The notes: a model not told the origin generated them from the sequence alone. A stretch of 64,000 bases of DNA from Gammaproteobacteria bacterium (GCA_021156105.1 JAJNBD010000002.1:198416-262415), one strand, 5' to 3'. Positions 60,953 to 64,000 are shown, counted from the stretch's first letter. Made by a program: numbers and translations.

Positions 60953-61699
60953 TTAAGTGTTTTGAGTAAGCTGAGTTAATGTTGTAATAAACAAACTTGG
61001 GTCAGCATTAGCCACTGTGCGGTTACTAATATAATAAACTTTGCCATCTTTTATCACGATGACTGTTGGGATTTCCATGATTTTAAATGCTTGCATTAAC
61101 GCTTGATCGTTTTTGAGATCGGCTTGAAGTTCTGCGCTGTTGGCAACTTTGTCATAGTCTTCAGCTTTAACACCATTGTTTAAGAAAAAGCTGCGTAATT
61201 GTTCATCGCTATTTAAGCCAAGCAATGGGTTTTGAGCAATATCAAAAATTTTGCCATTTAAAGTTTTGTCTAACTTTAATGCATGAGAAATATGATAGGC
61301 TTTGCTTAATACATCCCAGCCTGATTCAAATGCCACAGGAACAGGCTGAAAAGTGATATAAGGTTTTGCTTTTTTATCAGGGCTTCCAAAAGGTGGCAGA
61401 ATTTTCTTGGTATTTGCTGCAACCCATTGGTCAATATAAGAATGCAGTTTGTAACAATGAGGGCAACCGAAGCTAAAAAAATCTAACACTAGAATTTGAT
61501 GCGGCAGTGTTTTTAAGTTGGCCGGTACAAGGTTCGAAGAAAGTGTTTCGTAATTGGGTTTGGTGGTTGGTGCAGGTGTAGCGGTACTGCTAGTTGCTGT
61601 TGGCTTAGCAGCTGGTGTTGTGGAGGTTTGTTGTGCTTGTGCTGTGCTTAAACTAATGGTTAAAACACAAAATAAGATTTTAATTAAAGACTTTTTCAT
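60953..61699 (-). CDS. DsbA-family thiol:disulfide oxidoreductase with Thr/Pro-rich N-terminal linker
   Basis: FFSFGCPHCYKL CxxC motif; signal peptide at the internal Met (MKKSLIKILFCV...AQA); 25 nt downstream of the icmL-like gene. Confidence 0.7.
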   Translation of the reverse strand: MKKSLIKILFCVLTISLSTAQAQQTSTTPAAKPTATSSTATPAPTTKPNYETLSSNLVPANLKTLPHQILVLDFFSFGCPHCYKLHSYIDQWVAANTKKILPPFGSPDKKAKPYITFQPVPVAFESGWDVLSKAYHISHALKLDKTLNGKIFDIAQNPLLGLNSDEQLRSFFLNNGVKAEDYDKVANSAELQADLKNDQALMQAFKIMEIPTVIVIKDGKVYYISNRTVANADPSLFITTLTQLTQNT

Positions 61700-61724
61700 A
61701 ATTTGCTCGTAATAAATAGTTTGT

Positions 61725-62426
61725 TTAACCTTGTGCAGCTTGATTAATGTTTTGTCCGGTTTCTTGGTCTGGATAGCCTTCAGCGGCAATGTAATTGGTA
61801 ATGCCAATACCGTTTGGATTGGTTAGCGTAGAAATTCGCTTAATCATCAAAGTAACAATGAGTGATTGTTGGCTATATTCGCTGGCACTTTGATAAGTGA
61901 CTAAAATAGGTATATTGACTACCCAAGTGTATACGCCATCAAGTATTGCTTCACGTAGGATGGTTGGAGCGCGAGTCGCAACAGCAGAGACCACTAACTT
62001 TTTCTCTAAAACAGCATTTAAGTTACGCGAAGCTTTTAACTCGTTAAGATAGGCTTGCCAGCCATCTGGCGTGAAATATTCAGAGGCTTTTTGCAATTGC
62101 TCACGATAATTGAAAAAGTCATAAGTGTTAACCGCGATGACAGCAGTATTTGCCCATTGGAGAAGCGCCGCTTGCGAAACATTTGGCTGATTCAAGGGAA
62201 TAAGGGGAACAAGCTTGCCGTCGGCATAAGTTGCAAAATATTTTGGTTGAGGCGGATGGCTCATGACATAAATAACTGCGCCAACTAGAATGATCAAACA
62301 TAAGATAGCAAGATTAAGCGCAACGAGTACTTTACGGTAACTATCGCGATAAAATTCGTTGCGTGCGTTGACGGCAACTAGAACTTCATCTTGTTTGGGG
62401 CTATTTGGGTTTGGGGTGTCGGTCAT
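61725..62426 (-). CDS. icmL: Dot/Icm type IVB secretion core protein IcmL/DotI-like
   Basis: 233 aa, single TM after a cytoplasmic N-terminus. The TM-proximal region (YFATYADGKLVPLIPL) is paralogous to the 100-aa gene upstream. This gene sits after an OmpA-like lipoprotein, matching icmN-icmM-icmL. Confidence 0.6.
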   Translation of the reverse strand: MTDTPNPNSPKQDEVLVAVNARNEFYRDSYRKVLVALNLAILCLIILVGAVIYVMSHPPQPKYFATYADGKLVPLIPLNQPNVSQAALLQWANTAVIAVNTYDFFNYREQLQKASEYFTPDGWQAYLNELKASRNLNAVLEKKLVVSAVATRAPTILREAILDGVYTWVVNIPILVTYQSASEYSQQSLIVTLMIKRISTLTNPNGIGITNYIAAEGYPDQETGQNINQAAQG

Positions 62427-62725
62427 GAGGCATTCTCTTGCGATTTATTCTGTTGCGTAATGGCATTAGCAGTAACTAATGAATAAGGGACTAATGGTGT
62501 AACTTCACCTGCAAATGACGTGGCAAAATAGCGCTCTGGCGCTTGGCTAAAAAAGAAGTAAAGTAGGGCAAAAATTAGCAGGACGTTAATGATCATGATA
62601 GCCCATACTAGCCTAACACAGCGTCTAAAATGGATTTCGTTATAACCCTTTTGCTGTTGATTTCTGCGCAAGCGAGGGATACCAAATTCGTCAGCAAGTT
62701 TTGCATTTTCTTGGTTAATATTCAT
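62423..62725 (-). CDS. icmM: IcmM/DotJ-like (short DotI paralog)
   Basis: 100 aa, single TM; YFATSFAGEVTPLVPY paralogous to the icmL-like N-terminal region. Confidence 0.5.
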   Translation of the reverse strand: MNINQENAKLADEFGIPRLRRNQQQKGYNEIHFRRCVRLVWAIMIINVLLIFALLYFFFSQAPERYFATSFAGEVTPLVPYSLVTANAITQQNKSQENAS

Positions 62726-63257
62726 GCTCTATTCGATAATGTATTTCAACGCGATTGGTGAAAGAGTTATCTTTGCCTATATTATCACATTCCCCGTGGC
62801 CTTGGGCAGATAAAACACCAGCAGTTAACCCACTTGCGCGGAGTTTATTAATAAGTGCTTCGCTCCAGCTTTGTGTTAAAGCAAAATTTGCTTCTTTTGA
62901 GGTGCCAAGATTTGTGTAAGCTAAGACGCGTACCCCGGCGGTAGGCCGAACATTAATAAAGTTGACGAGAGCTTTGATTAAACTATCGGCATTGTTGCTA
63001 ACCAAAGTTGCTTCGCCATTAAATAGCTTACTGGTGGGAATAATAATTTGATAAGCATCACCATAATGGTAAACTGTCGCACCTTGCTGTTGCAGCTGAT
63101 GCATTAAGTGCGTGATGTTGCGCTCTTGCCAGTATGCGGCTTGCTGTGTAGAGGTTAGGGATTGAAATTGCGTTGCGCGATCATTATTAAACCCTGTGCA
63201 TGCGCTTAAACAAGCACTTAACAGGCTTAAAGTTAACAGGGTAAATATTTTCTTCAT
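62715..63257 (-). CDS. icmN: IcmN/DotK-like OmpA-domain lipoprotein
   Basis: Lipobox LSAC, 180 aa, OmpA-like C-terminus (NRVEIHY). Confidence 0.55.
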   Translation of the reverse strand: MKKIFTLLTLSLLSACLSACTGFNNDRATQFQSLTSTQQAAYWQERNITHLMHQLQQQGATVYHYGDAYQIIIPTSKLFNGEATLVSNNADSLIKALVNFINVRPTAGVRVLAYTNLGTSKEANFALTQSWSEALINKLRASGLTAGVLSAQGHGECDNIGKDNSFTNRVEIHYRIEHEY

Positions 63258-63335
63258 TCAGTAATTCCCTTTGCTACATTTATCTTTAAAGTGATTTCGT
63301 TAGTGCCTATCAGCTGCCACTATGCCAAAATTAGT

Positions 63336-64000
63336 TTACCCTATGCCGGTGGGCATAGATTTTTCTTGGCGTATATCTTGTATTCGGCTACAAAATTCTT
63401 CGATCATATTTATTACAGTAAAGCCATCTTGAGCCGGATAATCTCTAGGAGGATACTGCGTATTTAGTCGCAAATCTTTCATGAGTTCATTGCTAATGGC
63501 ATTAGCATTGCGTGCAGATTTACCAGTCAATCGCTCTGTAAGTTCTAATGATTCAACAGACTTATTGTAGTTTAACAGGGGACGGCTAAATTCTTCAACA
63601 TTGTTAACTAGTAATGGGTCTGTAAAGGTATCTTTGCTGAAGGCCAAGAAAATATTGAGGGGTTCTTTGAAAGCTTTAGTCACATCAAAAGCGATGCTTT
63701 GCGTCGCTGTTTGTTTGCTTTGCAATTCTTGAAGCACTGTTTTTGCGGCATAGCTAAGCGGTGCATCTTGTGCAGATTGCTGGAGGATATTTGCAATAAC
63801 ATTGACTTCTTCATTTTCGCTAGGCGGTTGCGTATATACCGTATCTAGTTCCGCAAGCTGCTGGAGTTTAATCGCGCCTTTCTCAATCTCAACTAACTTG
63901 CGGATAGCTGGGGGTTCTACTTTTAAGAAATGGTTAAGGCGGATTTCTTTCACAGGTTGTGGGCTGGCATAAAAAAACTTCATGCGCACAATTTTTGATT
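63336..64000 (-). CDS. 3' part of a larger gene running off the window; by synteny possibly icmO/dotL
   Basis: Frame stays open to the window edge; position upstream of the icmN-like gene. Confidence 0.3.
   Translation of the reverse strand, partial: SKIVRMKFFYASPQPVKEIRLNHFLKVEPPAIRKLVEIEKGAIKLQQLAELDTVYTQPPSENEEVNVIANILQQSAQDAPLSYAAKTVLQELQSKQTATQSIAFDVTKAFKEPLNIFLAFSKDTFTDPLLVNNVEEFSRPLLNYNKSVESLELTERLTGKSARNANAISNELMKDLRLNTQYPPRDYPAQDGFTVINMIEEFCSRIQDIRQEKSMPTGIG

Follow-up and report, generated by a model that had tools for sequence, protein, structure and literature searches.

The locus described here occupies the last 3 kb of a 64,000-nt stretch of DNA (hereafter, the window) from a Gammaproteobacteria bacterium (GCA_021156105.1, JAJNBD010000002.1:198416-262415) and consists of five co-oriented minus-strand genes, four of them belonging to a Dot/Icm type IVB secretion system (T4BSS) and the fifth encoding a DsbA-family oxidoreductase. 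The window comes from a metagenome assembly (JGI 3300045996, contig Ga0456371_00000017); the same organism is also represented by a Logan assembly, locus L001, from which a 10-kb flank beyond the window's end was read. A sequence-only reading of the window had recognized an OmpA-like lipoprotein (180 aa), a 100-aa transmembrane (TM) protein and a 233-aa TM protein as part of a Dot/Icm segment; all three genes are present on the minus strand, and the features of the locus are the following.

63336..64000, minus strand: icmO/dotL (type IV coupling protein), 3' part only, the final ~221 codons of a gene that runs past the window edge.
62715..63257, minus strand: OmpA-family lipoprotein of 180 aa in the icmN/dotK position, with a lipobox, an OmpA domain and a place between icmO and icmM.
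62423..62725, minus strand: icmM/dotJ-like gene, 100 aa, one hydrophobic segment (single TM), a partial IcmL paralogue.
61725..62426, minus strand: icmL/dotI, 233 aa, recognized by NF038072, PF11393 and the DotI structure.
60953..61699, minus strand: dsbA-like gene, 248 aa, recognized by Pfam DSBA, a CPHC motif and PDB and Foldseek matches.
60914..60943, minus strand: terminator-like hairpin with an 11-bp stem, a consensus match, just past the dsbA stop, where dsbA and the hydantoinase gene converge.

The icmL/dotI assignment is unambiguous. Its product scores 249.8 bits against the NCBIfam model NF038072 (IcmL_DotI_only; cutoff 175) and 197.6 bits against Pfam PF11393 (E=1.6e-58; cutoff 27.7), aligns over residues 84-215 to the solved DotI periplasmic domain (3WZ4, 161.5 bits), carries its single N-terminal TM as a hydrophobic segment at residues ~33-55 and is 55% identical to IcmL of Legionella pneumophila. 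At the upstream edge, where the sequence-only reading had tentatively placed icmO, an apparent 217-aa open reading frame (ORF; 63336-63989) encodes the C-terminus of IcmO/DotL, a 784-aa protein whose full-length gene lies at 7568-9922 of L001 with the same sequence as the window end. This IcmO is 61-62% identical to that of L. pneumophila over ~776 aa and matches NCBIfam TrbC_conju at E=1.8e-114. Inspection of the sequence beyond nt 64000 for icmO, icmP and icmQ yielded the first two but not the third: in L001, icmP stands upstream of the full-length icmO, and its product, IcmP/DotM, scores 441 bits against NF033890 (cutoff 230) and is 38% identical to L. pneumophila IcmP. A GDSL lipase gene precedes icmP, with no IcmQ match in L001 or L003, and no icmR, icmS or icmT was seen upstream of icmP, judged solely from the lack of Pfam matches in the flank. 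The segment thus reads icm(P)-O-N-M-L, with both IcmL and IcmP passing NCBIfam equivalog cutoffs, and the proposed Dot/Icm identity of the locus holds.

For the two small genes between icmO and icmL, identification draws mainly on where they lie and how their products are built. The IcmN-like protein carries an LSAC lipobox with a cysteine (Cys20) that all clade members and L. pneumophila DotK share, and an OmpA domain (PF00691, E=2.6e-5) that at 24.9 bits falls slightly below the gathering score of 27.2. It scores 44.5 bits against the IcmN model NF038223, short of the cutoff of 250, and 49.3 bits against CmpA (NCBIfam), and among PDB sequences it matches the OmpA-like protein Lpg0657 (38.7 bits) better than DotK (28.2 bits). 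In sequence it is no nearer DotK than another Legionella OmpA-like core-complex protein; it is nonetheless a lipoprotein with a C-terminal OmpA-like peptidoglycan-binding domain located between icmO and icmM, as DotK is, and we regard it as the positional orthologue of icmN/dotK. The IcmM-like protein is paralogous to the TM-proximal part of the window IcmL, as had been supposed (29% identity over 59 aa, E=9e-7, BLASTP), and scores 28.1 bits against NF038227 (cutoff 100, not reached) and 29.2 bits against NF038072; its identity comes mainly from its place 5' of icmL and its build as a short single-TM DotI paralogue without the periplasmic domain. The DotK-DotJ-DotI signature proposed for these genes therefore stands for DotI and for the architecture of all three, while the IcmN and IcmM profile cutoffs are missed. 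As a separate observation, the IcmN-like protein has a lone conserved non-lipid cysteine, Cys157, in a GHG(E/D)CDNI motif found in all IcmN-like proteins of the clade and absent from L. pneumophila DotK; being the only one in the periplasm, it could form an intermolecular disulfide only.

The gene that follows icmL is not icmK but encodes, as the sequence-only reading had it, a DsbA-family protein with a Thr/Pro-rich linker. It scores 33.2 bits against Pfam DSBA (cutoff 25.6) and 55.8 bits against the NCBIfam DsbA equivalog (cutoff 279, not reached). As in the gene calls of independent assemblies, translation most likely begins at the ATG at 61699 (248 aa, MKKS...); an upstream TTG at 61807 (284 aa, ORF 60953-61807) was rejected, as it overlaps icmL by 83 nt and is unused in the gene calls of other assemblies. 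The protein opens with a Sec signal peptide, read from the sequence, that ends in …STAQA before QQ, continues with the Thr/Pro-rich linker of ~25 residues (~residues 23-48), and bears a CPHC active site and a cis-Pro position (Pro211) that are invariant in its homologues, together with a clade-specific insertion of ~17 residues (~residues 97-113). An AlphaFold2 model (predicted local distance difference test, pLDDT, 83) is confident over residues 45-248 and disordered over residues 1-44 (pLDDT<50). The best PDB sequence match is L. pneumophila DsbA1 (4JRR, E=2.4e-13), and the top Foldseek matches of the model, at TM-scores of ~0.8, are all monomeric DsbAs, which argues against the dimeric DsbA2/Com1 type. 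The gene thus encodes an intact, secreted protein of the monomeric DsbA1 type, with the fold as predicted by the model, and it is under purifying selection (ratio of nonsynonymous to synonymous substitution rates, dN/dS, 0.09 against L002).

Other assignments were considered for this protein. The DsbA2/Com1 type was rejected, without direct comparison to a DsbA2 sequence, since the top structures are monomeric and residues 1-44, as signal peptide and Thr/Pro linker, leave no structured N-terminal dimerization domain, and the analogy to DsbA2 that the sequence-only reading had drawn fails with it; a DsbC type was rejected along with it. Lipoprotein anchoring was likewise rejected, as there is no lipobox and the AxA cleavage motif is conserved. 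A basal relative, P0135, has the Legionella-DsbA1-like motif FFSYGCPWCYK, lacks the insertion and shares 35% identity with L. pneumophila DsbA1 (the window protein, 26%), which indicates that the family descends from the DsbA1 lineage. No DsbB gene occurs among the Pfam-annotated genes of the window, and no second DsbA could be located. The genes of the locus are closely packed (icmN and icmM overlap by 11 nt and icmM and icmL by 4 nt, and a 25-nt gap separates icmL from dsbA), and from this gap and the placement of the terminator-like hairpin only after dsbA, dsbA is probably co-transcribed with icmN-M-L. The promoter/terminator scan gave site counts not above shuffled expectation and was used only for this hairpin.

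To place this arrangement, we compared it with 80 Legionellales species loci obtained by scanning GTDB species representatives with an IcmL alignment, a set that takes in Legionella species, Tatlockia, Fluoribacter, a Rickettsiella metagenome-assembled genome (MAG) and several other gammaproteobacterial MAGs. The window IcmL is at most 58% identical (main match) to any of these, so its lineage is without a GTDB species representative. In 79 of the 80 loci icmK directly follows icmL and the order runs on as far as icmB; the remaining locus has only 331 nt downstream. No locus carries a relative of the window DsbA within 10 kb. Neither the window nor L001-L007 yielded icmK, icmE, icmG, icmC, icmD, icmJ, icmB or icmQ. 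The rearrangement that the sequence-only reading had described is therefore real. The source being a metagenome assembly, the icmL-dsbA junction might be suspected of arising by faulty assembly or binning; the identical junction recurs in independent Logan, JGI, ENA and NCBI MAG assemblies and in eight diverged lineages, so that misassembly is very unlikely, and we give it next to no weight.

Dot/Icm gene order has been described as largely collinear across Legionellales, and IcmM/DotJ was treated as Legionella-specific in the same analysis (PMC8896642). The present clade departs from that collinearity, and a departure from the Legionella-specificity of IcmM is provided by short IcmM/DotJ-like ORFs (75-91 aa) located between icmN and icmL in non-Legionella lineages, as listed below.

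L008, 9992-10234: IcmM-like ORF.
L009, 9687-9962: IcmM-like ORF.
L010, 9980-10207: IcmM-like ORF.
L069, 9980-10207: IcmM-like ORF.
L081, 5081-5320: IcmM-like ORF.
L087, 8774-9016: IcmM-like ORF.

L087 also carries an extra full-length IcmL paralogue. Separately, 65 loci extend more than 6 kb upstream, and in five of these (L008, L009, L026, L065 and L087) icmO is missing before icmN; none of the five has icmO, icmP or icmQ in over 6 kb upstream of icmL, and other lineages therefore have a different breakpoint of region II, between icmO and icmN.

The rearrangement is clade-wide and real. The order icmN-icmM-icmL-dsbA occurs in eight of eight lineages with upstream DNA (window/L001, L002, L090, L003, L004, L007, L088/89 and L091), mostly followed by prlC, and DsbA/IcmL pairs with matching longest contigs (P0132/P0289, 27,688 bp; P0135/P0297, 9,764 bp) suggest two more lineages with the same arrangement. 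Across the clade, DsbA identity to the window protein runs from 81% down to 44%, with IcmO 74-83% and IcmL 68-94% identical. The DsbA-like family is rare: a set of 5.8 billion proteins contains 8 close homologues, 44-81% identical, and one of 1.84 billion contains 7 representatives at E<=1e-30. A scan of JGI metagenomes with the family alignment added one further member, L091, the other 20 loci holding generic DsbAs of 20-30% identity. An IcmL search returned ~19 clusters at >=67% identity, all metagenomic, before identity fell to <=62%, which delimits a discrete uncultured clade. The IcmO and IcmP proteins of this clade are marginally nearer Rickettsiella-type and other MAG loci than Legionella.

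The conserved neighborhood extends beyond the icm genes: lipase, icmP-L, dsbA, prlC, obg and OEP are syntenic clade-wide, and adjacency of icmL and dsbA is for this reason weak evidence for a DsbA dedicated to secretion. On the far side of dsbA the window holds two further features.

57119..60910, plus strand: lineage-specific three-gene insertion between dsbA and prlC, recognized by Pfam/NCBIfam results.
54483..56474, minus strand: prlC (oligopeptidase A; Pfam TOP_N and Peptidase_M3), the ancestral downstream neighbor of dsbA in the clade.

The insertion comprises a 413-aa orphan (no family match), an S-Me-THD-like gene and a hydantoinase A-like gene, with AT-rich DNA around the orphan (guanine-plus-cytosine content, GC, 0.347 at 56-58 kb). 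At this position it is absent from L003, L004, L088, L090 and L115, in which prlC follows dsbA. The two genes are 12 nt apart in L003 and 5 nt apart in L005, and they overlap by 19 nt in L088 and by 4 nt in L115. The context of P0136, the most distant family-like member (37% identity), shows a dsbA-prlC overlap on a contig that begins 150 nt 5' of dsbA, within GC-rich hairpins. Four lineages have 20-38 nt between icmL and dsbA; in L004 (2129-2316, 188 nt, -80 kcal/mol) and L088 (2467-2632, 166 nt, -62 kcal/mol) the spacer is occupied by very stable GC-rich palindromes. In a clade-wide view, the link of dsbA to prlC is no looser than its link to icmL. Two side observations concern these junctions. 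A similar palindrome (-73 kcal/mol) lies just 5' of dsbA in the more distant L115 (1-150), and the long palindromes of L004, L088 and L115, which stand in otherwise AT-rich genomes, may be mobile palindromic elements or terminators. The dsbA-prlC junction also appears as an insertion hot spot, with three genes in the window and an F-box-like gene in the 80%-related L002 (3074-3910, minus strand); the F-box is a eukaryote-like domain typical of Legionellales effectors.

Taken together, the best explanation, with a probability of roughly 0.55, is that region II has been split, that the locus is its distal end in a deep-branching, uncultured gammaproteobacterium of the Legionellales type, and that the DsbA is a general DsbA1-type oxidase. 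In the clade ancestor, the near-invariant string icmQ-P-O-N-M-L-K-E-G-C-D-J-B would have been broken before icmP and after icmL, and the break would have placed the PONML block beside the dsbA-prlC pair, giving the order GDSL lipase, icmP-icmO-icmN-icmM-icmL, dsbA-(prlC), with the remaining dot/icm genes presumably elsewhere in the genome. The DsbA probably acts generally in the periplasm: as the DsbA1-type oxidase of the lineage, it would oxidize the cysteine pairs of periplasmic and outer-membrane proteins, a clientele that probably includes T4BSS parts but would not be restricted to them. The break itself, conserved between icmL and icmK, implies that the icmL-icmK junction is not mechanistically required. 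A DsbA1-type oxidase that is probably co-transcribed with icmN-M-L is a natural candidate through which to study the coupling of disulfide formation to T4BSS assembly outside Legionella; practical value is modest, as the organism is uncultured, the functional link between DsbA and the T4BSS is putative and the components are of known kinds.

Several observations weigh against this explanation. One concerns the missing genes. When the remaining icmK was sought with a profile of eight IcmK sequences, this organism was absent among the 120 listed of 1,580 matches, and neither the 64-kb window nor the 10-kb flank holds another dot/icm gene, so that the icmP-L block could be the remnant of a decaying T4BSS that has lost icmK-B, its remaining genes being non-functional or repurposed; partial T4BSS sets do occur in some Legionellales MAGs (PMC8896642). 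We consider this highly improbable. At least eight divergent lineages keep all five genes intact, their products show the intra-clade identities given above for IcmO and IcmL, and dN/dS against L002 is 0.05-0.12 for icmN, icmM, icmL and dsbA; such an intact and constrained block argues that the remaining dot/icm genes exist elsewhere, and the inspected DNA amounts to only ~74 kb from a genome with a largest contig of 775 kb.

The other points concern the DsbA. The argument for its co-transcription with the icm genes is one of spacing, and the palindromes in the L004 and L088 spacers could terminate or process transcripts. The protein outpaces PrlC and IcmL in divergence and matches the rate of IcmN and IcmM, which would fit specialization, as would its clade-specific insertion and Thr/Pro linker. 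These properties lend some color to a possible but less probable account, that the DsbA is a dedicated T4BSS accessory, a specialized paralogue recruited to the icm operon to oxidize Dot/Icm periplasmic and outer-membrane cysteines. The gene adjoins icmL in every lineage where this is visible, in four of them across the short spacers described above, its family is rare, Dot/Icm assembly in L. pneumophila depends on a Dsb enzyme (PMC5403849), and TrbB in the F-plasmid type IV secretion system (T4SS) sets a precedent (PMC11315126). Against it, the synteny of the whole neighborhood makes adjacency little informative, L088 and L115 show translational coupling of dsbA with prlC, palindromes break the icmL-dsbA spacer in two lineages, and linkage of the family to a T4BSS is seen in one clade only. 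The adjacent icm products, moreover, offer no obvious periplasmic cysteine pair: mature IcmN has one non-lipid cysteine, and the cysteines of IcmL and IcmM lie only at or within the TM segment. The dedicated role suggested by the sequence-only reading draws on adjacency and is weakened by the DsbA1 type of the protein and by the tie of its gene to prlC. A bolder version, which we consider unlikely, would make the DsbA a new clade-specific Dot/Icm component, drawn from the DsbA1 lineage and remodeled by a change from CPWC to CPHC, a loop insertion and a flexible Thr/Pro tether. If that were true, the clade would build its T4BSS with a dedicated oxidase, alongside a separation of PONML from KEGCDJB that is unseen in the 80 other Legionellales species.

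Elsewhere in the window, several features unrelated to the icm locus were observed. An MSHA-like type IV pilus biogenesis cluster occupies 39605-50297 on the plus strand, with the following parts.

Seven small ORFs, of which one matches PilN weakly.
43789-45378: secretin.
AAA_22 protein.
TPR protein.
47398-49092: MshEN and T2SSE ATPase.
T2SSF platform protein.

Two GC-rich hairpins at 35217-35303 and 35831-35915, with related 32-35-nt arms (TGGGCA...TTTGCCCACCC), flank an ORF at 35292-35708 that has a weak Y1_Tnp (IS200/RAYT-type) Pfam match and, together with the hairpins, looks like a REP/RAYT-type unit. Two identical hairpins with 20-nt arms (CAGTTTATAAAAAAAGGGCC/GGCCCCTTTTTTATAAACTG) stand 180 nt apart at 24889-24933 and 25069-25113 and adjoin tRNA-Ser(GGA) at 25112-25204, the only tRNA gene of the window and the sole match of an Rfam scan. 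An 81-aa ORF at 33870-34115 (L113 11107-11352), following Rieske/cytochrome b genes, has a Pfam CBU_0592 match; this family is named after a Coxiella burnetii protein and fits a Legionellales/Coxiellales affiliation.

A close known counterpart of the locus is region II of L. pneumophila (icmT-S-R-Q-P-O-N-M-L-K-E-G-C-D-J-B), which shares with the window clade the icmP-O-N-M-L genes in the same order and the same DotK/DotJ/DotI architecture of lipoprotein, short TM paralogue and full DotI. The window differs in having no icmQ upstream and no icmK...icmB downstream, in carrying a dsbA-prlC pair after icmL, and in IcmN and IcmM proteins too diverged for the family hidden Markov model cutoffs. Other deep Legionellales loci (the Rickettsiella-type MAG L010, and the MAGs L008, L009, L069, L081 and L087 of uncultured gammaproteobacteria), which stand at a similar distance from Legionella and are 60-64% (IcmO) and 51-58% (IcmL) identical to the window, resemble it in the short IcmM-like ORF between icmN and icmL and, in some, in a broken region II; unlike the window, all of them keep icmL-icmK-icmE...icmB and have no DsbA gene within 10 kb.

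Among known enzymes, L. pneumophila DsbA1 (4JRR) shares with the window DsbA the thioredoxin fold with a helical insertion, the CxxC site and the cis-Pro loop, and its FFSYGCPWCYK motif recurs in P0135. The window protein departs from it in an identity of 24-26%, in CPHC for CPWC, in the ~17-residue insertion after helix 1, in the Thr/Pro-rich disordered N-terminal extension and in the location of its gene beside icm genes. L. pneumophila DsbA2 is not known to be encoded within the dot/icm loci. It is a Com1-like dimeric oxidase/isomerase needed for Dot/Icm assembly (PMC5403849), and like the window protein it is a periplasmic enzyme of the Dsb family, with a Dot/Icm connection known from the literature; the window protein, in contrast, has no structured N-terminal dimerization domain and matches monomeric DsbAs. 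In the F-plasmid T4SS a disulfide isomerase, TrbB, is encoded by the system itself (PMC11315126); TrbB and related thioredoxin-fold proteins of conjugative T4SS operons provide a precedent for a T4SS gene cluster with its own periplasmic thiol-disulfide oxidoreductase. TrbB, however, is DsbC-like (isomerase/chaperone) and serves an F-type T4SS, whereas the window protein is of the DsbA type and stands beside a type IVB system, to which it is linked by gene position.

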